A model generated the notes under the pieces. The model worked only from the letters and a program-made list of their open reading frames with translations, had not been told where the DNA came from and did not search any database. From IMG/VR virus record IMGVR_UViG_3300028048_002585: 64,000 bases of DNA. One strand, given 5' to 3'. This DNA comes from an uncultured virus (IMG/VR IMGVR_UViG_3300028048_002585) (taxonomy: Duplodnaviria; Heunggongvirae; Uroviricota; Caudoviricetes). This document shows positions 23,908-63,896 of the stretch, piece by piece; the stretch's first letter is position 1, and every line of letters begins with the position of its first letter. A program made the translations under genes and the position numbers.

Positions 23908-23915
23908 TTTTTTAT

Positions 23916-25850: not shown

Positions 25851-25857
25851 TAAGTAT

Positions 25858-26559
25858 ATGAAAAATGTAGCCAACGCTCAGAGCTGCGCAATGCTCTTCA
25901 ACCCGATGACAGAGGATGTAACAAACCTCTTATCTTACGAGGAAGTAAAGGATAAGCTGATGATTATGCTTGTAAGAGCTTTATCTCCAGAACTGTCGGA
26001 AGAAATGCCACACAAGAGAATTCTTGATATGGACCTCGTCTACAGAGTCAGGGTTACGGATGTCAAGGAAGGTGAACTTATGCTGGTGGTCACAAACGAA
26101 TTTCTGTCTTATTGGGATATTTCGAAAGAGAGGCTTCACGAGGATGCGATGAAGGTTGCTTTGGAAAAGGAGCCGCTTAATATTTTGAAGTTAAGCACAA
26201 TGCTGGACATAATGGGGGCACCTATAGATGCAGACGATGAAATCGTATCTTGTCCGCTGGTATATTGTTCCAACAGTTCGCAATATTACGGGGCATCCGT
26301 ATTGGCATATCCGGGGTTCTTCAAGAGAGCTTCGGAGATTATGAATGGAAGCTTTTGGATACTTCCTTCATCAATCCATGAAGTGTTACTTCTTCCCGAC
26401 ACGGGATTAGAAGATCCTAAGATGCTGGCTGGAACGGTTGCGCAAATAAATCGCGGATGCGTGTCTCCAAGTGATGTCTTAACGGATACTATTTATCACT
26501 ATGACAGTGATAAAAGTGTCTTCAAGATCGCGCAGAACTGGACGAACTGGTTTCTTTAG
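25858..26559 (+). CDS. DUF5688-like protein (short paralog)
   Basis: YGASVLAYP, FWILPSSIHEVLLLP, VLTDTIYHYD motifs. Confidence 0.75.
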   Translation: MKNVANAQSCAMLFNPMTEDVTNLLSYEEVKDKLMIMLVRALSPELSEEMPHKRILDMDLVYRVRVTDVKEGELMLVVTNEFLSYWDISKERLHEDAMKVALEKEPLNILKLSTMLDIMGAPIDADDEIVSCPLVYCSNSSQYYGASVLAYPGFFKRASEIMNGSFWILPSSIHEVLLLPDTGLEDPKMLAGTVAQINRGCVSPSDVLTDTIYHYDSDKSVFKIAQNWTNWFL

Positions 26560-26593: not shown

Positions 26594-26690
26594 AAAAATT
26601 GAGTCGATACTTATGTATCGGCTCTTTTTTTTACGGCCTCTTTTTTTATACATAATAGTTATGAAATTATTGACACATTTTAAAGGAGGA
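26594..26690 (+). promoter_or_regulatory. Shared terminator hairpin plus class-1 promoter/leader module
   Basis: GAGTCGATAC/GTATCGGCTC plus T8; CATAATA 26651-26657. Confidence 0.75.
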
Positions 26691-26697
26691 TAAGCAT

Positions 26698-27735
26698 ATG
26701 AAAAATGCAGCCAACGCCCAGAACAGCGTTATGTTCTTTAACCCGTCAACAGGTGATATCCGTATGGACTTCGAAACATTTGTAAAACGTCTTTCTGAAG
26801 ACGCCTGCAATGAACTTCGAAATGAGGGCATCGACATCACTGCTGAAGAACATCGTACCATATCAAAGCCTGGTACACAGTATGAAGGTGTAGGTTTTAC
26901 ACTTGGTTCTGACGACAGTGTGAAAATGGGACCATGTCTGAACATGTCGGAAATTTATGAGGAATATTCATCCGGACGTGACTATGACGATTTGTTCGCC
27001 GCAGTTGTGGAAGTGTTGAAAAGCTCATTAACCCCACCAGATTGTTTCAATGTAGATATATTGAGAGACTACAATAAGGTAAAAGAACGTCTTTACCTGC
27101 AGGTTGTATCGTCAAAAGATCCGTCATTAAAAGAATTTGCACATAAAAATCTCTTTCATGATATAGAGGTTATATATCGCATAATGATAGAAGAAGACGA
27201 AAATATCAATACATCTGCGATTGTTTCAAACGGGTCATTAGAGGACTGGGGTATATCACTGGAACAGCTTCACGAGGATGCTCTTTCAGCTACAATGAAA
27301 AATTACGGTCTTTGTTTCGGAAGTATATTTGAGACATTGAAGAAGATGGGGGCAGTTCCTCCATTTATGGATGAATCTGATTTTGAGAGTCCGATGCCTA
27401 TAGTTGTAGCATCAAATGAAAAAGGTTGCCTTGGAGCAGCGGTTCTCTCTTACCCGGATTTCTTCGAGAAGGCCGAGGAAGTTATGGGCGGAAGCTTCTG
27501 GCTTCTGCCATCTTCCATTCATGAAGTTTTGATGGTACCTGATACCGGTGATGATGGTATGGCTGAAATGTTGCTCGAAATGGTAACAATGGTAAATGCC
27601 AGTGGAGCAGTAGCGCCACAAGATGTACTCACAGATAACGCTTATTATTTTGACAGTGAGAGAAAAACTCTTGTGACGGCTGAATCTTATGCTGCTGATC
27701 ATGATGATTCAAATGAAGATGAACAGCTTTATTAG
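26698..27735 (+). CDS. DUF5688-like protein (long paralog)
   Basis: GAAVLSYP, FWLLPSSIHEVLMVP, VLTDNAYYFD. Confidence 0.75.
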   Translation: MKNAANAQNSVMFFNPSTGDIRMDFETFVKRLSEDACNELRNEGIDITAEEHRTISKPGTQYEGVGFTLGSDDSVKMGPCLNMSEIYEEYSSGRDYDDLFAAVVEVLKSSLTPPDCFNVDILRDYNKVKERLYLQVVSSKDPSLKEFAHKNLFHDIEVIYRIMIEEDENINTSAIVSNGSLEDWGISLEQLHEDALSATMKNYGLCFGSIFETLKKMGAVPPFMDESDFESPMPIVVASNEKGCLGAAVLSYPDFFEKAEEVMGGSFWLLPSSIHEVLMVPDTGDDGMAEMLLEMVTMVNASGAVAPQDVLTDNAYYFDSERKTLVTAESYAADHDDSNEDEQLY

Positions 27736-27743: not shown

Positions 27744-27840
27744 AAAAAAAGGGAGTCGATACTTATGTATCGGCTCTTTTTTTTGGCCTTTCTATATTTG
27801 TACATAATATGTGTGAAATTATTGACACATAATAAGGAGG
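27744..27840 (+). promoter_or_regulatory. Shared terminator hairpin plus class-1 promoter/leader module
   Basis: Same hairpin as 26601; CATAATA 27803-27809. Confidence 0.75.
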
Positions 27841-27846
27841 TGCATT

Positions 27847-28425
27847 ATGGAAGGAATCATTACACTATCTGATATTATTTTTCTCCTGATCGTCTTTGCC
27901 GCAGCAGTCCTGTATATTACATTCAGACTAATCGTAGACAAATTTACTGTCTATATAGACATGGATGGCGTTCTGGCGCAGTGGAATACATGGGCTACTT
28001 TGGAAGACACATATAAGCCCGGGTATTTTCTTAACTGTATTCCACAGGAGAACCTCATAAGAGCGGTAAAGCTCTTGCAAATATTTGGAATCAGAGTATG
28101 CATTCTTTCTGCAGTCTGCAACGAACAGGCCGCTAAAGAAAAGTCCCTGTGGCTTGACCGGTATGTAGGAAGGTTTGTGCAACGTATATTTGTACCTTAT
28201 GGTACGAATAAGGCCGACTACGTAGGAGCTGGAAGAAATTCACTGCTGATAGATGACTTTTCAGTTAATCTTCATCAATGGAGTGCTACTGGAAATACGG
28301 GTGTCAAATTCTATAACGGAATAAACGGCACTAAAGGAACTTGGACCGGTCTGTCCATTTCACATGAGATGAGCTCTGTCATTCTGGCATTCAGAATATT
28401 CTGTTCATTAAGACAATGTGATTAA
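27847..28425 (+). CDS. HAD-family 5'(3')-deoxyribonucleotidase-like protein with N-terminal TM helix
   Basis: YIDMDGVLA, LLIDD, NLHQW motifs. Confidence 0.8.
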   Translation: MEGIITLSDIIFLLIVFAAAVLYITFRLIVDKFTVYIDMDGVLAQWNTWATLEDTYKPGYFLNCIPQENLIRAVKLLQIFGIRVCILSAVCNEQAAKEKSLWLDRYVGRFVQRIFVPYGTNKADYVGAGRNSLLIDDFSVNLHQWSATGNTGVKFYNGINGTKGTWTGLSISHEMSSVILAFRIFCSLRQCD

Positions 28426-28487
28426 TTAAAAAAATGTACCCCTGCATATTGCAGGGGTATGTTTTTTAAATATTCAAGATGTTTGTA

Positions 28488-28516
28488 TTGTTATATACGT
28501 CAACATAATTTAAAAT
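28488..28516 (+). promoter_or_regulatory. Class-2 promoter TTGTTA-TATACGTCAA..-TAAAAT
   Basis: 17-bp spacer with conserved TATACGTCAA; follows a terminator at ~28430-28467. Confidence 0.7.
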
Positions 28517-28552
28517 AAAATTAAATAAATCATAGTTTTTAAAAAAACGGAT

Positions 28553-36238: not shown

Positions 36239-36581
36239 AGTAAGAGATGTATAATGAAACGAAGTGGCAGCGTGAGTCAACGCTGTCATTTTTATATTCT
36301 CCAAATTTGTTCGGGTACTAAGAAGAACAGTCTAAATTATTATATTCTGAATTATAATAATTTAAAATATAATAATTCATGTTTTTGTTATAAAAAATAC
36401 GAAGATATGTATGCATTTTTATAAATATGGTTAATTAAATGAAATATTCAACAGATATTAATAAGTTTTTTAGTGATTTTTTGGGGTGATAATCTATATT
36501 TTGGTGATTTTTATTTTTTTTTATACATAATATATATAGAGGAACAATTTCCGAATATATTTTTACCGAAAGGATTGTGTT

Positions 36582-38840: not shown

Positions 38841-38960
38841 TTTAAAACCTCTTATATTTGTATTTTGTACCAAAACCCTCAAGGTTTTGACTTTATACGT
38901 TTTAATAAGAAAACGTGAGTAAAAAAAATGAAAAAAATGTATTAACTAGACCGTCTGTCC

Positions 38961-39120
38961 TTGATGATTTAGTACAAAATGGTAATTTAAGCACTTTATT
39001 TTAAACAAAATATTGAATATTTATTAAAAAAATTAGCGTTTTCCTTGATGGTTTAGTACAAAATATCATTATAACGTTATAATTCTGCCTATTTTCTCAT
39101 TCCTTGATGGTTTAGTACAA
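38961..39120 (+). repeat. Three dispersed iterons downstream of rep (control-type)
   Basis: TTGATG(G/A)TTTAGTACAA at 38961, 39045, 39104. Confidence 0.85.
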
Positions 39121-39124
39121 AATA

Positions 39125-40171
39125 TTATGAAAAATCACTTAATGCCTCGTCAGTAAGTTCCTCTATCTTGTATATTTCGTTTCCTTTTACAAATACACCA
39201 TTTTCTATACTGAATACACTCTTATCATAGTTGTTTTCTTCTTCAGGACCAAAGTCCTTGATCTTATTAAGTGCTTCTTCTATGGCTTTGTCAGTTTCAT
39301 ATAATTCCATAGGCGTTTTATATCTAGTTATACAAATTACTGCTTCATTTTTTTTGTCCTCAATGACGTCTTCAATGATTACTGCTCCAAGTTGGTTTAT
39401 TGTTTTCATTGAAGGCTTAATGATTTTATTTTTTAGTCGGGACACATATTGAAGACTTTTCGGCAAGCAAAATGATTTGCAGGTCTGAACAAGTTCAAAG
39501 GGTATATTATATAATTTCTTGTCAAGGTCTTCTGTCAGTTTGATGTAGCTCTTCTTTATTTCATCGTCATAATTTTTATATTCTTTTCCATATCTTGCAC
39601 GGAATTGTTTGATTTCCTGACCTCGTTCCTTATCCATTTGGGCTTTTATATTCATATATACTCTTTGAGGATATTTACCTCTTAATCGAAGTACGTATTG
39701 TCCGGGATTTTTTGTAAAATTGTATTTTTTGTTTACTAGAAAGGGCATTAGTCTTTCGTCTATCTCTACAACAGCAAAACGATTATTTGGATTAACAAAT
39801 TCAGTTCGGCGCAGGATAAAACGCAAATCCGTAAATGAATTGTTAGGTCTTAAAATCTCTATGTTTTTAATTGTGAGCATTTTGATAGCATTGGATATTT
39901 CATTATATGATTCACCGTTTCTTGGCATGCCGGTTGATGCACAGAATCTTTTAAATGTGATGGGATATATTGTTCTATAGATAGGATTCCCAGCTTCATC
40001 ATAGTCAACTTTCGAATCTACATTCATTGCAAGATAATGTACAATCTTTAGTTCTACCTCTCCGAAGTCGTATGATCCATAAAATATAAAATCATTATGA
40101 AGTTCTACATCTCTCTTATAGAGGGTAGCTATGTCATACATTTTATCATTTTCATTAATTTTCTTTTCCAT
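39125..40171 (-). CDS. Rep_3-family plasmid replication initiator (copy C, iteron-associated)
   Basis: HNDFI..YDFGEVELKIV, LMPFL, LRGKYPQRVY, IIKPSMKTIN; iterons on both sides. Confidence 0.85.
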   Translation of the reverse strand: MEKKINENDKMYDIATLYKRDVELHNDFIFYGSYDFGEVELKIVHYLAMNVDSKVDYDEAGNPIYRTIYPITFKRFCASTGMPRNGESYNEISNAIKMLTIKNIEILRPNNSFTDLRFILRRTEFVNPNNRFAVVEIDERLMPFLVNKKYNFTKNPGQYVLRLRGKYPQRVYMNIKAQMDKERGQEIKQFRARYGKEYKNYDDEIKKSYIKLTEDLDKKLYNIPFELVQTCKSFCLPKSLQYVSRLKNKIIKPSMKTINQLGAVIIEDVIEDKKNEAVICITRYKTPMELYETDKAIEEALNKIKDFGPEEENNYDKSVFSIENGVFVKGNEIYKIEELTDEALSDFS

Positions 40172-40198
40172 ATGTAGTATCCTTTTAACGTGATTGCT

Positions 40199-40325
40199 TT
40201 GATGGTTTAGTACAATATCTTTGATGGTTTAGTACAATATCTTTGATGATTTAGTACAAGGTTCTTGACGGTTTGGTACAAGATTCTTGACGGTTTAGTA
40301 CAAGATTCTTGACGGTTTAGTACAA
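40199..40325 (+). repeat. Six 22-bp-period iterons (likely replication origin)
   Basis: TTGAYGRTTTRGTACAA at 40199, 40221, 40243, 40265, 40287, 40309. Confidence 0.9.
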
Positions 40326-40560
40326 CCCTATTTTTTTGATGCCTGTATTTATTGGATTTACGCAATTTTGTCCTCTACAACATATAAACGTTTTAACATT
40401 ACTAACGTATTATATAACGGTCAATTAAACAGGCCGAACTCTACAATCCCTGATTTGAACCTCTATATATATTATGTATAACTTTCGTTTAAAATCGCCC
40501 AAAAACAGCTTTTGCTGATTTATGTACGAATTTATACATAATGTATTTAGGAGGTGTGAT

Positions 40561-44575: not shown

Positions 44576-44742
44576 TGACGTATATGTTCTTTGATAATAT
44601 CACTCTAAAACATATTGACGTATATTGCAATACTAATTTTTGTATTTCCGTCAATTTCTTTGACGCTGATTTTGACGTCACTATATCTGACGTATTTTCG
44701 TTTCATATGTATTATGTATAAATTATGTGTGCTTAAAAAAAA
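44576..44742. promoter_or_regulatory. Operon control region: CGTCA-N7-TGACG palindromes plus class-2 (44630-44602, minus) and class-1 (44710-44742, minus) promoters
   Basis: Palindromes at 44649 and 44676; TTGCAA-17-TAGAGT; TATTATG 44710 with A-tract 44735. Confidence 0.7.
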
Positions 44743-45651: not shown

Positions 45652-45706
45652 TCCTGTCAACCCGCCATTTGTGGCGGGTTTTTTATTAATTAATTAATTT
45701 TTATTA

Positions 45707-45735
45707 TTGATATATACGTCAATATGTATTAAAAT
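45707..45735 (+). promoter_or_regulatory. Class-2 promoter TTGATA-TATACGTCAA..-TAAAAT
   Basis: 17-bp spacer; follows the terminator at 45659-45684. Confidence 0.7.
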
Positions 45736-45786
45736 AGATTTAGATAAAGATAAAAAACATTCGCCTTGATAATCGGAGGATATGTC

Positions 45787-45951: not shown

Positions 45952-46896
45952 ATGGAAAACAATAAGGTTTTAAAGGGCTGTGAGGACCCGAAGGGTATAT
46001 TTTCGGCATTTCGAGAGGATGGCAGAAGTATTCATGTAGAGGCACATTTTTCACCTGCTGCTCCTGAAGATAATGAACATCCTCTGAAGGTGTTCGGAAG
46101 ACTTTCAAGATTAAAATTCACTATCATTGATAAGAAAGATACAAAAAAGAAATACTGTGAAGCAAGTGTACAGTATGACAAGATAGCTAACATGCGCAAA
46201 ACCGGAGATTATGCATTTAACAAGATAATGGATGCAAAATCATCCGTTGTATCGACCGAAACGAGTCCTGCTTATACGGTAAGGATGACCAATGGTCCTT
46301 TTAGGGGGATGACGCCTGCTGAGATAATGAGCAACCCGGGAAACAAGGATACTCTCAACAAGCACTATGCTTTTCTCGATGAAAACTGCAGTAAGTATCC
46401 TAATAACAAAAAGCAGATGGATGCGATAATGGATGCTGCAAATCTTATGAAAGAAGGAAAGCTCAAGACGGTGGTCAACGCGAACAGTTTTGTTACGATT
46501 CTTGAGGCTGTTCCGCTCCCACAGATATACAGAGACGGCGTAGTCTTTGATTCCGCTACGAGCAGCTATATCTACCAGAAGAGAGAAGATAAGCTCTGTC
46601 CTGTGAATGAGATAGAGATAGTGTGTGATACGAGCAGGAATTCTCCTTACATAGTGACAATTTCAAATTATTTTGCTCCGGTTGTTAAAAATAAGGAAAA
46701 CGGAAAGCTGAATGCCATAAAGAAGAATATGGCGGATGAAGTGAGATATGTATTCAACCTCACTACAGCTGAATGGAATTCGTTTATGGAATATGAAAAG
46801 ATCGCGGAAGAAATCTTTATTAACACTTATGGCTTCAATATGCAGAAAGAAGCGGAAAAGTGGTTTAAAAAGAACCGTGAAGGAATAATAGCTTAA
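45952..46896 (+). CDS. Hypothetical protein
   Basis: 314-aa ORF with RBS. Confidence 0.75.
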   Translation: MENNKVLKGCEDPKGIFSAFREDGRSIHVEAHFSPAAPEDNEHPLKVFGRLSRLKFTIIDKKDTKKKYCEASVQYDKIANMRKTGDYAFNKIMDAKSSVVSTETSPAYTVRMTNGPFRGMTPAEIMSNPGNKDTLNKHYAFLDENCSKYPNNKKQMDAIMDAANLMKEGKLKTVVNANSFVTILEAVPLPQIYRDGVVFDSATSSYIYQKREDKLCPVNEIEIVCDTSRNSPYIVTISNYFAPVVKNKENGKLNAIKKNMADEVRYVFNLTTAEWNSFMEYEKIAEEIFINTYGFNMQKEAEKWFKKNREGIIA

Positions 46897-46967
46897 AGAG
46901 AATCATTGTCGATCCCCACCCATCTGCGGATGGGGAAAGATAATGGCGTTAAATAAGAGGGATAATT

Positions 46968-47306
46968 ATGGATGATTATATTAGATTCGATTTTACAGAT
47001 AAGCTTCTGACTTTTGTCGCAAGAACGTCGGATTCGTCCGAACAGGCAAAACGCAGCCATTATGATATCCTCTTCTTTAAAGATGAAAAGGGTAACATAT
47101 ATAAATATCCTGCAAGAGTAGATAAGAGAGGACGGGACATGACTGTCTTCGGGAAGTGCTGCCGGAAGGATGATATCGGAGGAAAATACTATGTCTCAGG
47201 ATCGGCAGGACTCATCAGCCTTCCGTTTGACGGCTACGATACGGATGTTTACGAAATATATGAAGCGAGAACAGAGACAAGGTTTGCAGCGGAATGTGCT
47301 GTATAG
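46968..47306 (+). CDS. Hypothetical protein
   Basis: 112-aa ORF with RBS. Confidence 0.65.
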   Translation: MDDYIRFDFTDKLLTFVARTSDSSEQAKRSHYDILFFKDEKGNIYKYPARVDKRGRDMTVFGKCCRKDDIGGKYYVSGSAGLISLPFDGYDTDVYEIYEARTETRFAAECAV

Positions 47307-47552
47307 AAGTTCAACAACGTAAAAACCCGGCATATCGGGAAGTTGGCACCTTCCTGACATAACCGGTTTTTAAATAAGCGGTATATCTCCCCAAGATATC
47401 CGTGGGGGACGGGGTCTTCGGGCTCCGTCCTTCATGCATTTTTATAGATGGATTATATAACTTTTATGTGATTTTGGCAATTTATCAAAACATTTATACA
47501 TAATATATATGGGAGAAGTTTTGTTTTCAAAACATTTCTGGGGAGGTTTTAT

Positions 47553-47774
47553 ATGAGAGATGATGATTTTGAGAAACTGAATAATGAGGCGGGCTTTTCA
47601 AAGAAGAATACGAAATATATCGTATTTACGGCGTTGCTCCTTGTCTATTTTATAGTGATACTCCTGCTCGATTCGCTGGGTATCATATCTGTTTTAGTGA
47701 GAAGGATCCTTATGTACGGGATGTTTCTCGTCATGCTCATTGTATATGCGATTCTTAGAAGAAGGGAGAAATAA
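47553..47774 (+). CDS. Small membrane protein
   Basis: Two TM helices; GGAGG RBS; CATAATA motif at 47499. Confidence 0.7.
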   Translation: MRDDDFEKLNNEAGFSKKNTKYIVFTALLLVYFIVILLLDSLGIISVLVRRILMYGMFLVMLIVYAILRRREK

Positions 47775-47776
47775 AT

Positions 47777-48484
47777 ATGGATGCCTTGAATATATCAAGA
47801 GCCTGTGATTATCTCATGGGCAAGACGAACAGGTACACTCCCAAGACGGTTTCTATCGAGCCCGGTAGGAAATTGAAGGAAAAGGAAATGAAGGCTCTTG
47901 AAGTCATTGCTTTCTTTGTCACGGATTATATGAACTGGACTCCGCTTGATGCTGTTGATCACCTTACAAATGATATAGTTGAATGCTTCGGACTTATGGA
48001 GTTTTTCAAGTATGTGATAATAGATGACAATATGAGAAAAATCGATAAAAATAAGCCTTTGAGCGACATTACAATTAAGTACATCCTCAGCAAGGCATTT
48101 CCCGATGTTGTTATTTTTGACGAGGAAGAGGGTGTCATCGATGTATGGGATGCGGTTCAGAACGGAGATATAACCAAGTGGCCTAGCAAGTTCTTTTCTG
48201 ATGAGAACGGAACGAGAAGGCGAATGATCATCTTTAAGGAGTTTCTCAGGCGCTATATTTCGGTAAACGAAAAGGATCTTTATGAGGAGTTCAAGAAGTC
48301 CGCTGCCATCAATAATGAGTTGAGAAAGAGGAAGCTCTTCTATGTGTTCTCACCATATTATGTACAGCCTATAGATCTGCTGCATGAGTATCTTCAGAAC
48401 GAAGACAGAGAAGACGAGTTCCTTTATGTTCTTTATAAGTACGAAAATATATGTCCGATATCTTTACCGGTCACAAAATGGTAA
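47777..48484 (+). CDS. Hypothetical protein
   Basis: 235-aa ORF coupled to the previous gene. Confidence 0.7.
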   Translation: MDALNISRACDYLMGKTNRYTPKTVSIEPGRKLKEKEMKALEVIAFFVTDYMNWTPLDAVDHLTNDIVECFGLMEFFKYVIIDDNMRKIDKNKPLSDITIKYILSKAFPDVVIFDEEEGVIDVWDAVQNGDITKWPSKFFSDENGTRRRMIIFKEFLRRYISVNEKDLYEEFKKSAAINNELRKRKLFYVFSPYYVQPIDLLHEYLQNEDREDEFLYVLYKYENICPISLPVTKW

Positions 48485-48520
48485 ACAAAAAGGCCGCCTT
48501 TTGAGGACGACCTAAATGTT

Positions 48521-49081
48521 TTAATCAACAAGTTTGATCCTGTCTATGATGGACACGATCAGCGCCTGTTTCTGCTGAAGAGTTCCGGAAGCCGTAAACT
48601 CTTCGTAAGACGAACAGCCTGAAAGGTTTTTCGCCTTGAGTCTCATTTCCTCGTCTATAAGACTGTCGAAGATAATGAGAAATTCGTTTACACCTTTCTC
48701 GTCAAGAGAAAGCGTGTATTCATCTGCGTCAACGGATGAAAAGGTAGAATGTAGAAATTCCTGAAGCATTTGTTCAGCTGATGCACGGTCTGCCACATCC
48801 TTGATTATGTTTTTATCCAGAATGTAACGAATATTTGCATATCCTTTGAGTCCTTTTTCCGAAAGTATCTCGGATATAGACTTACCTGAGCATGAACCAC
48901 AGCCTTCCGGAACGATCGGATCCTCATGGATTACTTCTGCTTTTTCAAGCCTGCTTTCAGGAGCGGTGGCCGGTGACAGAAGACCGGTAAGGAATTCTTC
49001 CATTGATGCGGTGCAGTCATCAATGTAGATGACTACGGAAGTTCCGTCTCGGAACATCCTGATTTTCATACTATTTTCCAT
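48521..49081 (-). CDS. Hypothetical protein
   Basis: AAGGAGG RBS; class-1 module at 49088-49151. Confidence 0.75.
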   Translation of the reverse strand: MENSMKIRMFRDGTSVVIYIDDCTASMEEFLTGLLSPATAPESRLEKAEVIHEDPIVPEGCGSCSGKSISEILSEKGLKGYANIRYILDKNIIKDVADRASAEQMLQEFLHSTFSSVDADEYTLSLDEKGVNEFLIIFDSLIDEEMRLKAKNLSGCSSYEEFTASGTLQQKQALIVSIIDRIKLVD

Positions 49082-49171
49082 TTCGTTTCCTCCTTCATGG
49101 TGTCAATTATTCTATATATATTATGTATAAATATGGAGGGAACAAAAAAAACTACATATGGGGATTTACTA

Positions 49172-49200
49172 TTGACTTATACGTCAAGTGGTATTACGAT
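49172..49200 (+). promoter_or_regulatory. Class-2 promoter TTGACT-TATACGTCAA..-TACGAT
   Basis: 17-bp spacer; contains the palindrome TTGAC-N6-GTCAA. Confidence 0.7.
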
Positions 49201-49206
49201 AAAATC

Positions 49207-49423
49207 GTAAGGACTGGCAAGTCTTACATCACCCGTAAATTTAAAGTGTAGAAGGCATTTGCCTGATACGAGAGTGCGAATCTCTCCGGGTGAATTGGAA
49301 TTAGGTAGAATTTGGAATGCTGATCTGTATCGGCATGTTTCCTCCTTTCTACCCAATGTCAATAAATTTCTGGCAGGCTGGAAAGACAGCCGATCCCCAT
49401 AGAATTTCTATGGGGATTTTTTT
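49207..49423 (+). ncRNA. Putative ~215-nt structured sRNA with tRNA-like domain and leader-antisense segment
   Basis: Bounded by a promoter and the strong terminator ATCCCCATAGA/TCTATGGGGAT-T7; consecutive hairpins; no convincing + strand ORF. Confidence 0.65.
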
Positions 49424-49509
49424 ATTCCGTTCGGAGTATTGCGGGTTCGATTCCTGCAGGCGAGATTATGGAGCTGTGCTCTAATTTTTTACAAGGAGGC
49501 CAGAATGTT

Positions 49510-49791
49510 ATGGCATATACGAAAAAGGAACTCGTTGAAAAGGTTGCTTCCAAGGCTGAAGCATCAAAGAAGGTTACTGAAGATGTAATAGGCGCTCTGT
49601 TTGAGGTTATTACAGAAGCACTGGTTGAAGGTGAGTCAGTCAGCATCCCGAAATTTGGAACGTTTTCCCAGTCTGAGCGTGCTGCGAGAACAGGTGTCAA
49701 TCCTTCCACAAAGGAAAAGATTGAGATCAAGGCCTGTAAGACTGCAAAGTGGAAGGCTTCAAAAAATGTAAAAGATGCTCTTAACGGATGA
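49510..49791 (+). CDS. hup: HU family DNA-binding protein
   Basis: TKKELVEKVA, FGTF, RAARTGVNPST, KWKASK. Confidence 0.95.
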   Translation: MAYTKKELVEKVASKAEASKKVTEDVIGALFEVITEALVEGESVSIPKFGTFSQSERAARTGVNPSTKEKIEIKACKTAKWKASKNVKDALNG

Positions 49792-49849
49792 GTGTATCCC
49801 GATGCCTGCCTTCGGGCAGGCAGGGATGTCTGGAAAAGGGGGTGGAATT

Positions 49850-50632
49850 ATGTATGATAATCTTTGTAAAAAAATAGTAAAGTTGATGAATCTCAACAGA
49901 TATCTTTCCAAACAGGAACAGCGGTTCGTTGTTGAATGGAAGGAAAGACTAGATATGAAGGATGAAATTATTCTTGAGGCCGTTAAAAGAGCTGTAAACT
50001 ACAAGAAAGCTCGTGCAAGTTTTCCTTATATAAATGCGGTTCTTGAAAACTGGGCAGAGAAGAATGTTGGCAGTTTTACTGACATAATGAAGCTTGATGA
50101 TGAGTACAGAAAAAAGAAAGAAGAAAAAAGTTCTTCCGAGAATAAGAATGATGCTATTCTTGCAGGAACAGGAGTAGGGAAGAATTATCATTCTGTTCAG
50201 CTCAATATAGCTGTTGAAAGAATAAGAGATACAGCAAAGCTTCCAACAAGAGGTAGTGAGTATGCGGCAGGTTATGACCTGTATGCAGATATAGATAAAG
50301 AAATAGATATAGAGCCACACGAGGTTGTAAAGATTGGAACAGGCCTTAAGATAGCTGTGCCGGAAGGATATTTCGGGGCAATATTTGCCCGGAGCGGTCT
50401 TGCGACTAAAGAACAGCTTGCTCCTGCAAACTGTGTGGGAGTCTGTGATAGTGATTACAGAGGAGAGTATATTATAGCTTTACAGAATAATGGAAATGTG
50501 AAAAGGACAGTTAAGCCCGGAGAAAGAATAGCGCAGCTTGTAATTATGCCATTCCTTCAAGTCGGTTTTGTAGAGGGAAAGCTTGATGAGACAGTAAGAG
50601 GCGAAGGTGGCTTTGGCAGTACAGGGAAGTAG
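49850..50632 (+). CDS. dut: DnaD-domain / dUTPase fusion
   Basis: N-terminal IILEAVKRA..FPYINAVLENW; five dUTPase motifs AAGYDL, RSGLA, DSDYRGE, GERIAQ, RGEGGFGSTG. Confidence 0.85.
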   Translation: MYDNLCKKIVKLMNLNRYLSKQEQRFVVEWKERLDMKDEIILEAVKRAVNYKKARASFPYINAVLENWAEKNVGSFTDIMKLDDEYRKKKEEKSSSENKNDAILAGTGVGKNYHSVQLNIAVERIRDTAKLPTRGSEYAAGYDLYADIDKEIDIEPHEVVKIGTGLKIAVPEGYFGAIFARSGLATKEQLAPANCVGVCDSDYRGEYIIALQNNGNVKRTVKPGERIAQLVIMPFLQVGFVEGKLDETVRGEGGFGSTGK

Positions 50633-50635
50633 GTA

Positions 50636-50869
50636 GTGTTTTTGATCAGAATAGAATCATGTCCGATATGTGGCAGTAATAATATAGATACAGTGGTACA
50701 GACAGGTAGCAGGGACAAGGATAAATTAAAAAGATTCAGATCCTGGGCTTTCTGTAGGGAATGTAAGCATCGTTCAATGATCTCTTCAGGAATCTTTGAG
50801 TCTGAAGAAGAGGCGAGAAGAACAGCGATCCGATTGTGGAATGAAGCCTGCAGGTCGAAACTTGGATAA
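50636..50869 (+). CDS. Lar-like restriction-alleviation zinc-ribbon protein
   Basis: CPICG..CREC..EEEA..AIRLWN. Confidence 0.6.
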   Translation: MFLIRIESCPICGSNNIDTVVQTGSRDKDKLKRFRSWAFCRECKHRSMISSGIFESEEEARRTAIRLWNEACRSKLG

Positions 50870-50885
50870 TCAGGGAGAGAAAAAA

Positions 50886-51266
50886 ATGCCTGGACAAGAA
50901 ATGATTGTCAGAGAAAATCCTAACAGCTTTTACAGGGAAACACCCTGCTCAGTCGTTGCTGTGGGGACTGCACTTAATATGCAGGGGAGAAATCTCAAAA
51001 TTTCAGACATACCTGATAATCTGAAAAATGATGGGTATCTAACTCTCAGGGATATGAACAGATTTGTACGATCTCATCTTGATGTCAGAAAAAGAGAAGA
51101 CTTTAAGAGGGGAGAGAGGAAGAAACTCTGGGTGATGATTTCAGATAATAAGGAAAAAGCAATAATATGTGTCCTTGGACATTATATATATGTGGAAGGT
51201 AATACATATTATTCGTTCTTCGATAATGCGTATGATGATGTTGTTACCGTGTGGTGGCTGAAATAG
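50886..51266 (+). CDS. Hypothetical protein
   Basis: ORF with GGAG RBS. Confidence 0.65.
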   Translation: MPGQEMIVRENPNSFYRETPCSVVAVGTALNMQGRNLKISDIPDNLKNDGYLTLRDMNRFVRSHLDVRKREDFKRGERKKLWVMISDNKEKAIICVLGHYIYVEGNTYYSFFDNAYDDVVTVWWLK

Positions 51267-51390
51267 GTAAAAGGTCACACCAGAATTAAACAATATCCTT
51301 GATTAAGACGAGAACTCTAAATTCTGTCCATAATTATGAGACAGAATATGACATCTCGGATAATGTCGATTCGATGTTACTGTTTTAAGA

Positions 51391-51433
51391 GGCTGATTTG
51401 GCAGCCTAATGGTGAGGCAGGTTATCTTTAGCG
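51391..51433 (+). repeat. 43-bp direct repeat, copy 1
   Basis: GGCTGATTTGGCAGCCTAATGGTGAGGCAGGTTATCTTTAGCG. Confidence 0.85.
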
Positions 51434-51588
51434 ATATCCGTAACGCATTCACTAAGCCTTTGTAAGTTTTAAGATTCCCAAAACTTAATAGGTGTAAATT
51501 TGAGGTTTTGAAACCCTATGAATTTACACGGGTACCATGAAAATAAGTGATGTTTTAAAAATATTATGGAAAGCGTTTATTTATATTT

Positions 51589-53664
51589 ATGACATTTGAT
51601 GAATTTGCAGAAAAATATAATATATTGTTAAATGAGCAACAGAAGGAGGCGGCACAGACTGTTGATGGTCCATGCCTTCTTTTAGCGGTTCCCGGGAGCG
51701 GGAAAACAACTGTTCTGGTTACAAGGCTCGGATATATGATATATGGATGCGGTATAGCTCCGGAAAGCATTCTTACACTTACATATACTGTTTCTGCAAC
51801 GAAAGATATGTCGGAAAGATATGTTAAGATATTCGGAAATGAGCATGAAAGACAGCTTGAATTCAGGACTATAAATGGAGTATGTGCCCGTATTCTTATC
51901 TGGTACAGTAGTCGTATAGGTCGATCCAGTTTTGATCTTGAATCCGATGAGGGACAGAAGATAAAAAGAATAACTCGGATTTATCAGGATTTAACACATC
52001 AATATCCTGCCGAAAGTGATATTCAGGAGATATCGACGTATATAACATATATAAAGAATATGATGCTTGAAGATGAGGAGATTGATAAGCTCGGAAATGA
52101 TTGCGAGTATCCGCTCCGCGATATATATAATGCGTATAACCGAAGTCTGAAAACAGATCAGATGATGGATTATGATGATCAGATGATATATGCATATAAG
52201 ATACTGATGTCTGATCCTGTAGCATTGGATTATTTTAGAAACAAATATCGTTACATCTGTGTAGATGAAGCACAGGACACATCTAAGATACAGCACGCCA
52301 TAATCTCACTGCTTGCGGGTAAGAACGGCAATCTGTTTATGGTGGGCGATGAAGACCAGTCTATATATGGATTCCGTGCAGCTTTTCCTGAAGCTCTTCT
52401 TTCTTTTGAAGATGAACATCCGGGAGCTAAAATACTTCTCATGGAAGAGAATTTCAGATCTAATGCTAATATTGTTAGTGCAGCGGACGCTTTTATTCAG
52501 AAAAACACCATGAGACATAAGAAGACTTTGCGTGCGCATAGAGAGAGTGGCTCAACAATAGAAGAGATAAAAGTTAATGATAGATATGGTCAGCACAAAT
52601 ATTTGCTTGAAGTTGCAAGAAATTGTACCGAAGAGACAGCGGTATTATATAGAGACAATGAAAGTGTAATTCCTTTTATTGATCTTCTTGATAGAGAGGG
52701 TATTTCTTTTCGTGTAAGAAATGAAGAGCTTTCTTTCTTTTCTAACAAAGTAGTTCAGGATATAGTTTCGATCTTGAAGTTTGCTCTTGATCAGCGTGAT
52801 GCTGAAAGCTTTTTGAAGATATATTATAAGCTTGGAATATACATGACAAAAGAAGATGCGTTTAGACTTGTTAATATGGCCAACGGAAGCAGTATTACGG
52901 ATGTTGGCCGAAAATGTAAATTTATGAATAAAAATTCATTCCAGAATTTCATTGATTTCTGTAACGATATAAATCATCTTAAAACAGTATCCCCGGTTTA
53001 TGCTATTGGCTATATAGAAAATAATATGGGTTATGGAAGATATCTTCATGGCAGGCATATAAGCTCGGGCAAACTGGAAATACTCAGGATGATATTCAGA
53101 AATGTTTCTCGTCTGGATGATGCCCTGACAAGGTTGGATGAATTGAAGACTATAATTACTAATAACTTCTATGATAATGATTGCAAGCTTGTCCTCTCAA
53201 CAATACATAGTAGTAAGGGACTTGAGTATAAAAATGTATATATCATTGATGTCATAGACGGAGTTTTTCCTGATAAGACATATGATAATGTCTATCAGCT
53301 CAGTAAAGATGAAAGGGCTGTTTATGAAGAAGCAAGAAGAGTTTTTTACGTAGGGATAACACGAGCTAAAGATAATCTTTTCTTATTCAGGACAGGGGCT
53401 GCTGCTACATTTATTAATGAAACTCATAAACAGATACACAGGAGCATAGATTTTAATGCTCATAAGAAAAATAAGGATATAGAGGATTTTGCAATCTATT
53501 GTGACAGATTTAAAGAAGGCGGTGATGTTAAGCATTTTAAATACGGTATCGGTGTAATAGTTGCTGTGAAAGCACCTATAGTGGAAATAAAGTTCAAGAA
53601 AGATATAAAGAAATGTGATATGAAAATTCTATATGAAAGCAATGCAATAAAATTTATATTATGA
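51589..53664 (+). CDS. UvrD/PcrA-family DNA helicase
   Basis: AVPGSGKTT, VDEAQD, GDEDQSIY, NFRS, STIHSSKGLE, RRVFYVGITRA. Confidence 0.92.
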   Translation: MTFDEFAEKYNILLNEQQKEAAQTVDGPCLLLAVPGSGKTTVLVTRLGYMIYGCGIAPESILTLTYTVSATKDMSERYVKIFGNEHERQLEFRTINGVCARILIWYSSRIGRSSFDLESDEGQKIKRITRIYQDLTHQYPAESDIQEISTYITYIKNMMLEDEEIDKLGNDCEYPLRDIYNAYNRSLKTDQMMDYDDQMIYAYKILMSDPVALDYFRNKYRYICVDEAQDTSKIQHAIISLLAGKNGNLFMVGDEDQSIYGFRAAFPEALLSFEDEHPGAKILLMEENFRSNANIVSAADAFIQKNTMRHKKTLRAHRESGSTIEEIKVNDRYGQHKYLLEVARNCTEETAVLYRDNESVIPFIDLLDREGISFRVRNEELSFFSNKVVQDIVSILKFALDQRDAESFLKIYYKLGIYMTKEDAFRLVNMANGSSITDVGRKCKFMNKNSFQNFIDFCNDINHLKTVSPVYAIGYIENNMGYGRYLHGRHISSGKLEILRMIFRNVSRLDDALTRLDELKTIITNNFYDNDCKLVLSTIHSSKGLEYKNVYIIDVIDGVFPDKTYDNVYQLSKDERAVYEEARRVFYVGITRAKDNLFLFRTGAAATFINETHKQIHRSIDFNAHKKNKDIEDFAIYCDRFKEGGDVKHFKYGIGVIVAVKAPIVEIKFKKDIKKCDMKILYESNAIKFIL

Positions 53665-58639: not shown

Positions 58640-59764
58640 ATGCCCAATGCAGAGTTTTTGAAACAAGCAAAAAAAGGTAAAAATGACGAATTTTACACTC
58701 AGTATGAGGATATACAAAAAGAAATGAATGCATATCTTGAATATAATCCTGATACGTTTCGAGATAAAACTGTATTATTACCTTGTGATGATCCTGAATG
58801 GAGCAATTTTACGAAATTTTTTGCTCAAAACTTTGAAAAGTATGGTTTGAAAAAACTTATAAGCACAAGTTATGCAACTGAAAGTAAAAATAAGAATATT
58901 CCACCAAACTATCAATTTACCGTTGAAGATTTTCTTACAGACTATGAAAAGAATTCTCCTAAATTCGATAGAGACATTACTTCAAGAAGAGGTAAAGTAT
59001 TTATATTAGACAGAGATAGTAACAATTCCGGAACTATCAATATTGAAGATCTTGATTGGGAATACTTGGATGGAGACGGAGATTTCCGTTCTGATGAGGT
59101 ATGTAGGTTAAGAGATGAAGCTGATATAATAATAACGAATCCACCATTTTCTTTATTTCGCGAATTTTTAGCCTGGGTTATAGAAAAAGACAAGAAGTTT
59201 ATGATGATAGGAAATATTAATTGTATTTCCTATAAAGAAGTGTTTCCTCTGATAAAAGACAATAAAGCATGGCTTGGAAATGGTATGGGCAGATGGATTT
59301 CCGGGTTCATAGTTCCGGATAAATATGAGTTGTATGGAACTGAGGCTCGAATAGAAAATGGTAAAAGAATAGTAGCAACAAATAATTGTCTATGGCTTAC
59401 TAATATTGAGCATGGTAGGAGGCACAAACCGTTGCCATTGATGACCATGGAAGAAAACTTGAAATTTAGTAAACACAAACAAATTAAAGAAATGGGATAT
59501 CCTAAATATGACAATTATGATGCAATAGAAGTGCCCTTTTATGATGCTATTCCCAAGGATTATGAGGGATTGATAGGTGTTCCTGTAACATTTCTTGATA
59601 AGTATTGTCCTGATCAATTTGATATAGTTGGATGTAGTGATAATGGTGCTGTTCCAGATAACTATAAGTTACCTCATTTTAAGAAACATAATGAACCATA
59701 TGTAGATGGTAAGAAAGTATATAAGCGTATATTCATCAGAAGGAAAGGGGTTGCTAATGGCTAA
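58640..59764 (+). CDS. Adenine-specific methyltransferase, EcoRI-like family (copy 1)
   Basis: KNDEFYT, LPCDDP, GDGDFRS, ITNPPFSLF. Confidence 0.9.
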   Translation: MPNAEFLKQAKKGKNDEFYTQYEDIQKEMNAYLEYNPDTFRDKTVLLPCDDPEWSNFTKFFAQNFEKYGLKKLISTSYATESKNKNIPPNYQFTVEDFLTDYEKNSPKFDRDITSRRGKVFILDRDSNNSGTINIEDLDWEYLDGDGDFRSDEVCRLRDEADIIITNPPFSLFREFLAWVIEKDKKFMMIGNINCISYKEVFPLIKDNKAWLGNGMGRWISGFIVPDKYELYGTEARIENGKRIVATNNCLWLTNIEHGRRHKPLPLMTMEENLKFSKHKQIKEMGYPKYDNYDAIEVPFYDAIPKDYEGLIGVPVTFLDKYCPDQFDIVGCSDNGAVPDNYKLPHFKKHNEPYVDGKKVYKRIFIRRKGVANG

Positions 59765-60941
59765 TGAGAATTTAGGTAAAGCAAAAACTGTTAAAAATGA
59801 TGAGTTTTATACTTTATACGAATATATACAAAAGGAAATGAATGCTTATCTTGAGTATAATCCAGATGTATTTAGAGATAAAACTGTATTATGCCCTTGT
59901 GATGATCCTGAGTGGAGTAATTTTACTCGTTTTTTTGCGCAAAACTTTGAAATGCTTGGTATAAAAAAGCTTATAAGTACGAGCTATGCGTTAGAAGCAA
60001 AAAAAAACAAGTATGAAAAATATCATCAAATTACATTATTTGAATTAAATTCTTCGCAATATGATGAAGAAAAAGCAGAAAGAAAGGGTAAGATATTTAC
60101 ACTTTCAAGGCACACAAAGAAAAAAATTAACTATGACGACCTGGAATGGGACTATCTTGAGGGAGACGGAGATTTTAGATCAGAAGAGGTAAAGAAGCTT
60201 CGTGATGAGGCTGATATTATAATCACAAATCCACCATTTTCTTTATTTAGAGAATTTATATCATGGATATATGAAGCAAACAAAAAGTGTATTATTGTTG
60301 GGAATCAGAATAATGTTACCTATCCAGATGTATTTTCTTTTATCATGAGTAATAAACTTTGGATTGGTGCCACATGTAATAGTGAAGATATGGTTTTTAT
60401 GGTTCCGGAAGGGGCGGTTGTGTCTCCAAAAGATAAAGAGAAAGCCGAGAAGATGGGCTATAAAGGCAATTATACTCGAATGGGTAATATATGTTGGTAT
60501 ACTAATATTGAACATGGTAGAAGGCATCAATTATTGAGTCTTATGACTATGGATGATAATGTAAAGTATAGCAAACATAAGGTAATAAAAGAGAATGGTT
60601 ATTTAAACTATAACAATTATGATGCTATAGACATTCCTTTCGTGGATGCAATACCATCTGATTATGATGGAAAGATGGGTGTTCCAGTAACATTTTTAGA
60701 CAAATATTGTCCTGAACAATTTGAAATTATTGGGATTTCTAATTTGAAAGAGATTCCTTTAGAGGGTGTTAAACCAGTTGGAGAAAAATGGGTTTCCGAA
60801 TATCGTAAAAGTGGAGGAACAGGTCATATTAGCCCTAATATGCATTGTTTAATAGGCTATAATAAAAGTAATACCCCAGTATCATACTATCGAAGAATAA
60901 TAATAAGGAGAAAACAAAGTGAAAACAACATTAATAACTGA
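59757..60941 (+). CDS. Adenine-specific methyltransferase, EcoRI-like family (copy 2)
   Basis: Same motifs; start MANENL overlaps the stop region of copy 1. Confidence 0.9.
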   Translation: MANENLGKAKTVKNDEFYTLYEYIQKEMNAYLEYNPDVFRDKTVLCPCDDPEWSNFTRFFAQNFEMLGIKKLISTSYALEAKKNKYEKYHQITLFELNSSQYDEEKAERKGKIFTLSRHTKKKINYDDLEWDYLEGDGDFRSEEVKKLRDEADIIITNPPFSLFREFISWIYEANKKCIIVGNQNNVTYPDVFSFIMSNKLWIGATCNSEDMVFMVPEGAVVSPKDKEKAEKMGYKGNYTRMGNICWYTNIEHGRRHQLLSLMTMDDNVKYSKHKVIKENGYLNYNNYDAIDIPFVDAIPSDYDGKMGVPVTFLDKYCPEQFEIIGISNLKEIPLEGVKPVGEKWVSEYRKSGGTGHISPNMHCLIGYNKSNTPVSYYRRIIIRRKQSENNINN

Positions 60942-62085
60942 TTATACAGTTAATGATATATGTAAGGGTTTTGTCTATAACGAATACGAGGGAAAGGGCT
61001 TATACGGTTTATCTGGAAAGTTAGTTATTCAGCCGGAATATCAGAGAAATTATATTTACGCAGATGGAAAGAAAGATGTTGCTGTTATAGAATCTCTTCT
61101 TAAAGGCTATCCTTTAGGACTTATTTACTTTGTTAAGGTTGATGATGATAAATATGAAGTCCTGGATGGTCAGCAGAGAATTACAAGTTTTGGTAGATTT
61201 AAGACAGGTAAGTTCCCAATTATAGACGATAATGGCATGCAGCAGTATTTTGATGGTTTGGATCCGGATCTTCAGAACAAGATTCTTGATAGTAAACTAA
61301 CAATATACATCTGTGAAGGTGATGAACCGGAGATAAAGGCTTGGTTTAAGACTATAAATATCGCAGGCGTACCTCTTAATAATCAGGAACTTCTTAATGC
61401 TATTTATTCGGGTCCGTTTGTTACAGCAGCTAAAGAAGAGTTTAGTAATAGTAATAATGCTAATATTCAAAAATGGAGTGCTTATATAAAGGGGGAGGTA
61501 AATAGGCAGCAATACCTTGAAACAGCTCTTATGTGGGTTTCTAAAGGTAATATAGATGCTTATATGAGCAGTCATAGGAAAGATGATAATATAAAAGAAT
61601 TAAAATCTTATTTCAATAGTGTGATAGATTGGATATCAAGTGTATTTTCTGATGTAGAATCTTCTATGAGGGGCTTGCCTTGGGGCGAACTGTATGAAAA
61701 GTATCATAAAAATTCATACAATCCATCTGAAGTACATGAAAAGCTTCAGGAGCTACTTTCTGATGAGAGTGTAACAGACAAGAAGGGTATATATGAATAC
61801 ATATTAGATGGTTGTAAGAATCCAAAGTTTCTTAATATCAGAATATTTGATGATAGAACAAAAAAGAGTGTTTATGCTAAGCAGACAGCCGAGGCTAAAG
61901 AAAAAAATGTATCCAATTGTCCTTATTGTGCTATGTCCGATAATCAGGCTATGATGAAAAGATTATGGAAATATGCTGAAATGGAAGCAGATCATGTTAC
62001 TGCTTGGAGCAAAGGCGGATCTACAAGTGTAGAGAATTGTCAAATGCTATGCAAAACACATAATGCATCTAAAGGAAATAGATAG
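60919..62085 (+). CDS. DUF262 + HNH endonuclease (putative restriction component)
   Basis: QPEYQR, LDGQQR, FKTIN; EADHVTAWSKGG..NCQMLCKTHNASK. Confidence 0.88.
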   Translation: MKTTLITDYTVNDICKGFVYNEYEGKGLYGLSGKLVIQPEYQRNYIYADGKKDVAVIESLLKGYPLGLIYFVKVDDDKYEVLDGQQRITSFGRFKTGKFPIIDDNGMQQYFDGLDPDLQNKILDSKLTIYICEGDEPEIKAWFKTINIAGVPLNNQELLNAIYSGPFVTAAKEEFSNSNNANIQKWSAYIKGEVNRQQYLETALMWVSKGNIDAYMSSHRKDDNIKELKSYFNSVIDWISSVFSDVESSMRGLPWGELYEKYHKNSYNPSEVHEKLQELLSDESVTDKKGIYEYILDGCKNPKFLNIRIFDDRTKKSVYAKQTAEAKEKNVSNCPYCAMSDNQAMMKRLWKYAEMEADHVTAWSKGGSTSVENCQMLCKTHNASKGNR

Positions 62086-62230
62086 TTGTATAAGTTATAA
62101 AACAATAAATTAATTAGAATAATTTAGAAAAGATTGTGAGACTATGTAATATAAATAGAGAAGTAAGATGTAAGATGAATCAGCTTGAGAAATCAGGCTG
62201 ATTTTTTATTTGCTGTTGTTAAAATCATTA

Positions 62231-62259
62231 TTGTTATATACGTCAATATAAACTAAAAT
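62231..62259 (+). promoter_or_regulatory. Class-2 promoter
   Basis: TTGTTA-TATACGTCAATATAAAC-TAAAAT after the terminator at 62178-62207. Confidence 0.75.
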
Positions 62260-62310
62260 AATATTATAAAGATGATTCGAATTTTATTATAAACGAATGG
62301 AGGATAGGGT

Positions 62311-63713: not shown

Positions 63714-63820
63714 CACTTCGGGAAGGAAATCATTTGCGGTGATCTTTAATAATGTATAAGCAAAAATCCTTACAGATTTTCATTATCTGTGAGGATTTTT
63801 ATTATGTATAAATTTTGTTA

Positions 63821-63849
63821 TTGTTATATACGTCAATATAATTTAAAAT
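63821..63849 (+). promoter_or_regulatory. Class-2 promoter
   Basis: TTGTTA-TATACGTCAATATAATT-TAAAAT; near-identical context to 62231. Confidence 0.75.
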
Positions 63850-63896
63850 AATATTATAAGATGTAGAAAAGATGCGAGATGGGGAGGCACTGAAAA

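Follow-up and report, generated by a model that had tools for sequence, protein, structure and literature searches.

The 64,000-nucleotide stretch of DNA analyzed here (IMG/VR record IMGVR_UViG_3300028048_002585, referred to below as the window) is a replicon of plasmid-like character from a Firmicute-type host of the rumen. Our subject is a 386-bp gap in it (49082-49467), flanked on one side by a minus-strand gene for a protein of 186 amino acids (aa; 48521-49081) and on the other by a plus-strand gene for an HU-type DNA-binding protein. The gap holds a hairpin-rich unit of about 215 nt, framed by a promoter and an intrinsic terminator, whose 3' part carries in reverse orientation a leader also found in front of ten genes of the window. 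A preliminary description of the same DNA had proposed that the unit specifies a small RNA (sRNA) silencing these genes in trans. The analysis of this single sequence presents the unit as a well-formed candidate for such an RNA.

Boundaries of the Intergenic Unit

The promoter in front of the unit belongs to a family that we call class 2. Its score of 9 of 12 is weak taken alone, because the surrounding 1.6-kb region contains promoter-like sites at a number near the shuffle level (6, compared with 3.6 +/- 2.1 in shuffled sequences). The family provides further evidence: TATACGTCAA occurs six times in the window against an expectation of 0.13, a count reached by none of 100 shuffles, and all six copies share a geometry of TTGNNN, a 17-nt spacer opened by TATACGTCAA, and TAnnnT. 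Downstream of each of the other five, on the same strand, come a Shine-Dalgarno (SD)-like sequence and a start codon. Within the family, the 49172 copy has the best -35 and heads no supported open reading frame (ORF); its -35 plus spacer form the palindrome TTGAC-N6-GTCAA. Class-2 promoters probably carry an operator. Members of the family head the SMC/helicase/topoisomerase operon, the signal-peptidase/actin-like partition operon and several small-gene operons. An inverted repeat, TACGTCA-N8-TGACGTA, is also present in three copies (2058-2088, 2156-2186, and 44669-44699); its ACGTCA core is common with the class-2 spacer, and the repeats look like repressor binding sites.

At the other end of the unit, the terminator hairpin alone has a predicted energy of -17.4 kcal/mol and is one-way, as the minus strand has no T run after it. 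The unit is assigned to the plus strand because of the promoter family and this one-way terminator, folding being unable to discriminate between the strands. Mechanical ORFs of 37-61 aa are present within the unit, and none of the five tested had Pfam support better than E = 0.13. At gathering thresholds, Rfam returned no match in the window; the best sub-threshold match, to ylbH on the minus strand, reached 25.1 bits (gathering score 50) and rests mainly on the terminator hairpin. ARAGORN reported no tRNA or transfer-messenger RNA (tmRNA). The promoter and the strong terminator, both noted in the preliminary description, were thus recovered; its label 'ORF-less' holds for family support and not for mechanical ORFs. 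Judging from these boundaries, a plus-strand transcript of the unit is probably real.

A Leader Cassette in Front of Ten Genes

The leader TTATTGACA...AAGGAGG lies in front of the genes starting at 6657, 7431, 8773, 11811, 23907, 25325, 25858, 26698, 27847, and 49081. In the window, the pattern TTGACAN{3,20}AGGAG has 10 matches against 0.68 expected, and none of 100 shuffles reached that number; nine of them precede listed genes, and the unit accounts for the tenth. In front of 7431 the sequence is GGGAGG, and this leader was recognized by eye. A strict version, TTATTGACAN{3,20}AAGGAGG, matches 7 times against 0.00 expected, with the unit among the 7, while ATTGACA alone shows no enrichment (14 compared with 13.75 expected). 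The conserved leader before ten genes, as first described, is therefore borne out by pattern enrichment, with 7431 added by eye.

A repeat search and inspection of the printed surroundings revealed that the leader motif forms the 3' end of a longer cassette, about 80 nt in length and made up of terminator, promoter and leader, which we call class 1. It consists of the terminator hairpin of the upstream gene with its T run, followed by the block TTTATACATAATA (23 copies at no more than one mismatch, 3.0 expected) and, about ten bases on, by GAAWTTATTGACAC, a short variable stretch, AAGGAGGATAA, and ATG. The full cassette is found at the ten listed genes, in both orientations, and the leader-bearing copies were counted as 11. 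The TATACATAATA block also heads other operons, with different leaders. TTGACA was considered as the -35 of a downstream promoter and rejected, since the copies have no -10-like hexamer at the right distance.

A metagenome contig of 5128 bp (L009) contains three cassettes that are about 80% identical to those of the window, while tblastn found no similarity between its six ORFs and the window. The comparison indicates that the cassette is conserved and portable and that its cargo differs. It follows that the leader is under constraint, the cassette being about 80% conserved in a contig whose ORFs are without protein similarity to the window.

The Reverse Leader Copy

On the minus strand, the segment 49370-49334 reads as a copy of this leader. 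It shares 14 identical nt with 8792-8805 and 12 with 11834-11845, which confirms the matches to the 8773 and 11811 leaders reported previously. In an alignment of 13 sequences (the ten listed genes, two cassettes from L009, and the reverse copy), homology runs from approximately GAAAT to the ATG, and the reverse copy lacks the promoter block; a start site placed 7 nt downstream of CATAAT in that block would coincide with GAAAT. The leader-like arm of the hairpin has a mean identity of 72% to the ten leaders and an alignment score of 11.0, compared with -3.4 +/- 2.7 (maximum 6.9) in 300 shuffles, whereas the opposite arm scores -3.1, which is chance level. Because this partner arm is not leader-like, the hairpin is not a decaying symmetric palindrome. 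By this alignment, one arm has both conserved leader blocks intact and the other has been shaped only to pair with it, and the complementarity to the leaders reflects true homology and not chance.

The same segment could be a recombination scar between cassettes, in which part of one was left inverted beside the stub of a lost gene. It would then have no present role in regulating the other leaders, and the fold and signals around it would serve another purpose or none. Cassettes are found on either strand and move between gene sets that are unrelated, much as do the PeSL elements of T4-like phages, which mediate shuffling (PMC4122927); an 11-nt direct repeat, TATGGGGATTT, flanks the whole unit (49157-49167 and 49409-49419), as would be expected of an insertion; before its T run, the cassette of the 186-aa gene retains just half of a terminator hairpin; and no relative of the unit was found. 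We nevertheless consider a scar unlikely, given that the copy has sharp limits, at the predicted start site on one side and the ATG on the other, with both conserved blocks perfect, that the opposing arm has diverged and the leader-like arm has not, and that the most stable fold of 17 intergenic regions lies between a family promoter and a strong terminator. As a separate observation, the left copy of TATGGGGATTT is apparently half of the lost terminator hairpin of the neighboring cassette, and the unit looks as if it had been inserted into a bidirectional terminator.

It is also conceivable that the minus strand is the functional one, with the 11-codon ORF (MPIQISIPNST) acting as a leader peptide or small-peptide unit that ends at a weak terminator (49227-49198) and the plus-strand RNA perhaps serving as its antisense partner. 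Its leader, 11-nt SD complement and ATG are intact, the hairpin at 49207-49227 is followed on the minus strand by GAUUUUAU, which gives it the look of a weak terminator, and a promoter-like site scoring 9 of 12 is present at 49494-49465 (minus strand). However, no class-1 promoter block lies upstream, the terminator-like hairpin was missed by the terminator scan, and a 61-aa minus-strand ORF is without family support. At 11 codons and without hydrophobic character (judged by eye), the peptide is unlike a type I toxin, so that the locus does not resemble a type I toxin-antitoxin pair. We regard a minus-strand function as quite improbable.

Fold of the Unit and Predicted Pairing With the Leaders

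The plus-strand RNA 49207-49425 folds with a predicted energy of -84.1 kcal/mol (z = -6.94), and none of 200 shuffles folded as well. When 154 windows taken from 17 intergenic regions were compared, the lowest z-scores fell in this interval, in agreement with its earlier characterization as hairpin-rich. Choosing the strand by the lower energy of the plus strand (-84.1 vs. -74.5 kcal/mol, with 3 vs. 1 G-U pairs) was rejected, as the z-scores are equal. Other intergenic stretches with z-scores of -5 to -6.8 (15829-16028, 13093-13342, 1855-2054, and 36239-36438) may be origins or further structured RNAs.

Two parts of the predicted fold bear on pairing. Within the anti-SD stretch, UCCU (49343-49346) lies in an internal loop with an unpaired probability of 0.98-1.00, while UCC (49340-49342) and UUCUACC are paired; the partial pairing mentioned in the preliminary description is thus confirmed, with UCCU alone open. 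Further 3', that description had placed AATGTCAATAAATTTC unpaired between two hairpins. This is correct for 49364-49375, the open linker, which is complementary to the 5' end of the leader (GAAAUU) and to GCCAGAA of the HU start region. It does not hold for 49355-49363, which pairs with 49294-49302 in a weak A-U/G-U helix (unpaired probability 0.01-0.32, with the exception of G49358 at 0.78); AAUGUCAAU, the complement of TTGACA (UGUCAAU), is located in this weak basal helix.

Pairing with the 55 start regions of the window was scanned in windows, with the opening of both RNAs charged, in place of whole-length duplex energies, which had been dominated by long looped duplexes. Nine of the ten leader genes fell within the top 11 of the 55 start regions, with net energies from -11.4 kcal/mol (25325) through -10.7 (49081, the second best) down to -6.0; the best predicted partners were 25325, 49081, 26698, 11811, 8773, 7431, and 25858. 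Pairing between the RNA and the leaders is thus predicted to be feasible but modest.

Proposed Function

We infer that the RNA is made, that it starts at the predicted site and that the leaders lie within mRNAs. On this footing, the class-2 promoter would start an RNA near 49207 that ends at the terminator at 49423, is strongly folded and non-coding, and whose 3' domain repeats in reverse the portion of the cassette that is expected in the transcript, namely leader and SD. Pairing with the 5' untranslated regions (UTRs) of the cassette genes would begin at the open linker together with the weak basal helix (49355-49375), at the UCCU loop, or at both, and the resulting duplex would cover the ribosome-binding site, so that translation would be lowered and the duplex perhaps cleaved. 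Only antisense pairing accounts together for a family promoter, a one-way terminator, and an intact, sharply bounded, one-armed reverse copy. We put it forward tentatively as the function that we favor for the unit. Somewhat more doubtful is the wider proposal that one RNA from a 'maintenance-type' class-2 promoter is a master antisense regulator of about ten DNA-handling genes, otherwise unrelated, that owe their common leader to the portable cassettes, such that any gene recombining into a cassette falls under its control. Overall, the trans-acting interpretation of the preliminary description gained from the homology and from the leader genes being the best predicted partners, and lost in that its toehold is half open and the energies are modest. 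Its further suggestion, transient expression of these genes after transfer into a cell lacking the RNA, found no basis in the window, as neither a relaxase nor a coupling protein is among the 55 proteins scanned.

A number of observations weigh against antisense control of the cassette genes. The anti-SD and most of the anti-TTGACA segment are paired, and opening the full site would cost about 24 kcal/mol. Net pairing energies are modest after accessibility correction, the gene at 27847 reaches only -3.2 kcal/mol (rank 27 of 55), and the high ranking of the leader genes follows in part from the leader copy inside the RNA. The conserved blocks of the cassette could be operators of a repressor protein, independent of the RNA; candidates for such blocks are TTATTGACAC in class 1 and the TTGAC-N6-GTCAA palindrome of the class-2 copy at 49172, and no repressor candidate was identified among the scanned proteins. 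Repeated promoters of such a kind on Bacillus plasmids are under repressor-protein control: on p576, the ribbon-helix-helix repressor Reg576 binds TTATCCC heptamers and controls the repeated EGeRS2 promoters (PMC6294495). Moreover, the fold z-scores do not favor RNA of one strand, being -6.94 for the plus strand, -7.04 for the minus strand and -6.89 for single-stranded DNA.

The last value is compatible with the stretch acting as DNA, as a single-strand initiation, primosome or transfer-related site, and the unit region adjoins both the HU gene and, near it, a gene with a DnaB_2/DnaD-like domain. This appears highly improbable to us, since promoter and terminator frame the stretch exactly, the window has no relaxase or rolling-circle Rep according to the protein scan, and nothing specific to such sites was found.

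The searches for relatives also stand against the antisense proposal, as no homologue of the unit was found in any of them. Against plasmids, blastn of 49082-49467 and of 46000-53000 gave no match; against phages, it gave only one unrelated match of 384 nt in the dUTPase region. Among contigs from viruses, metagenomes and genomes, protein-guided scans confirmed no relative, and three further pattern scans of viral contigs gave nothing. L009, the sole contig recovered, has no reverse leader copy in its 5128 bases. Eight genome-contig loci returned by a loose cassette pattern, each with a single match, showed no similarity to the window in blastn and were treated as chance.

RNA-Library Contigs and the HU Gene

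Contigs of bovine and sheep gut metatranscriptome runs hold sequence nearly identical to the window. Over 47500-51500, the data comprise unstranded contigs from four runs of three studies, in which DNA carry-over is possible. These contigs likewise count in part against the antisense proposal. Only one of them touches 49310-49423. It comes from run X1 (191 nt, depth 2.8, without mismatches), extends over 49310-49500, through the terminator into the HU leader, and fits read-through into HU as well as an sRNA. No contig covers 49108-49309 in the four runs, though for such contigs missing cover carries no weight. The leader-bearing mRNA of the 186-aa gene (48521-49081) is present in contigs of all four runs, and because of this any silencing would not be at the mRNA level. 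The contigs of this gene end at 49100 and 49099 in two different studies and, in the remaining two runs, at 49089 and 49085; the first two ends are just 3' of TTGACA (49106-49101), in a comparison that included no DNA run. This is a weak hint that the TTGACA block is promoter DNA rather than mRNA, and an alternative extended -10 (TGnAATTAT/AATAAT, by eye) would fit an mRNA start after the block. The ends at 49099-49100 could be a start site or a processing site, and a start near 49113 with trimmed contig ends also fits their positions.

The main alternative is that the unit is the 5' leader or attenuator of the HU / DnaD-like-dUTPase / Lar operon, its terminator restricting read-through, with the reverse copy being structural or a cis-acting anti-SD and having no targets in trans. 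The HU start was placed at ATG 49510 and not at 49468, so that one strand carries the promoter, about 215 nt of structure, the terminator, 87 nt and then the HU start. The HU gene has neither a class-1 nor a class-2 promoter of its own, neither motif being found between 49423 and 49510, and 49172 is the only plasmid-type promoter of the operon. The contig that crosses the terminator agrees with this explanation. In addition, UUCUGGC of the linker (49368-49374) is perfectly complementary to GCCAGAA (49500-49506), between the HU SD and ATG; the two pair in the fold of the read-through transcript, and the HU start region ranks 3 of 55 in the pairing scan (-7.9 kcal/mol). On the other hand, no antiterminator appeared in stepwise or constrained folds, a result with which a protein- or RNA-dependent mechanism is compatible, and no Rfam family was matched at threshold. 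A weak sigma-70-like site (TTGCGG, 19 nt, GATTAT, by eye) follows the terminator, and HU contigs start at 49484, 49493, and 49531 in three runs. Finally, the intact leader blocks in the reverse arm are left unexplained. We thus consider a leader function without trans targets rather unlikely as the whole explanation; the two can both hold, and the proposed antisense RNA may double as the terminated 5' leader of the HU operon.

The features of the unit, its neighbors and the related promoter and cassette copies are collected in Table 1.

Table 1. Positions of features in and around the intergenic unit, and of related cassettes and promoters.
Feature	Position	Strand	Basis or remark
Class-1 terminator-remnant/promoter/leader cassette of the 186-aa gene (48521-49081)	49082..49151	-	Repeat search, alignment
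Class-2 promoter	49172..49200	+	-35 TTGACT, 17-nt spacer opening with TATACGTCAA, -10 TACGAT
Hairpin at predicted first transcribed base, 5' stabilizer-like	49207..49227	+	Start predicted from -10 position
Three-way junction (closing helix CACCCGG/CCGGGUG) containing two small hairpins plus an open A/U-rich strand	49229..49293	+	Fold
Long imperfect hairpin; 3' arm is the reverse leader copy, 5' arm not leader-like	49294..49363	+	Fold, alignment
Orphan leader copy GAAATTTATTGACA...AAAGGAGGAAAC, ATG 49336, 11-codon ORF ending at 49301	49301..49370	-	Pattern, alignment
Anti-Shine-Dalgarno stretch UUUCCUCCUU	49338..49347	+	UCCU in internal loop, rest paired
Single-stranded linker AAAUUUCUGGCA	49364..49375	+	Unpaired probability 0.76-1.00
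Small hairpin GGCUG-GAAAGA-CAGCC abutting terminator	49376..49391	+	Fold
Intrinsic terminator	49392..49423	+	12-pair stem at 49392-49418, then T run
HU-type DNA-binding protein gene	49510..49791	+	ATG 49510 behind AAGGAGG (49493-49499); frame checked by eye
Other class-2 promoters, TTGNNN-TATACGTCAA-N7-TAAAAT	28479-28523, 44594-44644 (-), 45698-45742, 62222-62266, 63812-63856		
Cassette copies, window	6651-6730, 7427-7506, 8767-8846, 11807-11886, 23901-23980, 25250-25330, 25784-25863, 26624-26703, 27776-27852, 49074-49153		
Cassette copies, contig L009	1966-2041, 2697-2782, 4011-4125		

Replicon Context

The window encodes two Rep3-type initiators, one adjoining 22-bp iterons, as well as ParA/ParB, an actin-like partition protein and a topoisomerase. 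Seven 22-bp iterons (40177-40347) lie beside the 348-aa Rep3 gene and three related repeats (38957-39133) on its other side, and together they are probably a theta-type origin. Genes for DNA handling are abundant, including UvrD-like and RecD-like helicases, a RecJ-like protein, RadC, two DUF5688 proteins and an AAA/vWA protein. At 58640-62085, two tandem diverged genes for EcoRI-type adenine methylases, which share 70-77% DNA identity across long stretches, precede a gene for a GmrSD-N/HNH nuclease. The 186-aa neighbor of the unit belongs to no known family, and only 2 homologues of it (64% and 59% identity) were found in a large protein collection. On the HU side, 49440-49462 (plus strand) resembles the T-arm and 3' acceptor strand of a tRNA or tmRNA (GGTTCGATTCC core) and overlaps the weak HU -35 candidate. 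The Rfam match to the 3' end of tmRNA there is weak (E = 0.049) and ARAGORN reported no gene at this position; the stretch could be a remnant of an attachment site.

Relation to Known Regulatory Systems

Plasmid countertranscripts of the FinP/traJ type are structured antisense RNAs that cover the ribosome-binding site in a 5' leader and are transcribed opposite a single target. Unlike RNAs of the FinP/CopA type, the unit does not overlap its target gene, its opposite strand holding a promoterless leader copy and the 11-codon ORF, and its presumed targets, to be reached in trans, are some ten scattered mRNAs with a common leader.

The unit also shares features with the CiaRH-dependent csRNAs of streptococci, each of which has its own promoter and terminator hairpin and is complementary to SD and start codons, by which csRNAs were proposed or shown to block translation initiation of several mRNAs (PMC3091779). 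The candidate unit similarly has its own promoter and terminator framing a short non-coding stretch, with complementarity to the SD. However, the anti-SD/anti-AUG of csRNAs is unpaired between two stem-loops, while the anti-SD of the unit lies mostly inside a stable hairpin; and csRNAs are chromosomal, approximately 90-150 nt long and conserved across species (PMC3091779), while the unit is a candidate plasmid singleton without detected relatives. The complementarity of the unit moreover extends to a plasmid-specific leader block, and no sequence relation to csRNAs was seen. Although the unit would work in the manner of these RNAs and of the countertranscripts, we count it in neither group.

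The class-1 cassette resembles the PeSL elements of T4-like phages, which are composite terminator/promoter cassettes that mediate shuffling (PMC4122927). Both are terminator-plus-promoter repeats placed between variable genes and common to replicons with different cargo. The cassette differs from PeSL in that it occurs on a plasmid-like replicon and adds a conserved leader block and SD, and in that recombination is here a deduction; for PeSLs, no antisense RNA partner has been described.

As on the Bacillus plasmids p576 and pLS20, one regulatory sequence recurs at the head of several dispersed operons for DNA handling or anti-restriction, and for those plasmids transient expression after transfer was proposed (PMC6294495; PMC8708921). 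On pLS20, this sequence is the long, structured EGeRS1, whose mechanism is unknown. For neither plasmid is an antisense RNA described in these reports, the word 'antisense' appearing once in that on pLS20, in the reference list (PMC8708921). Unlike for p576, no repressor or operator was identified in the window, and conjugative transfer is only a conjecture here. Within the terms covered, the literature yielded no plasmid RNA aimed at a leader common to many plasmid genes; within these terms, a portable RNA-addressed regulon is undescribed for plasmids.

If the unit is merely an HU leader or a scar, the finding is ordinary. Even without a role of the RNA in trans, the cassette family clearly corresponds, on a plasmid, to phage PeSL and shows how gene modules of rumen plasmids may be wired and exchanged. 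If antisense control is true, accessory plasmid genes would be co-regulated post-transcriptionally through a shared portable leader 'address' and not through a repressor protein. This would be a simple system of one RNA and about ten leaders, and a third mechanism beside the two described for establishment-type regulons on Gram-positive plasmids.

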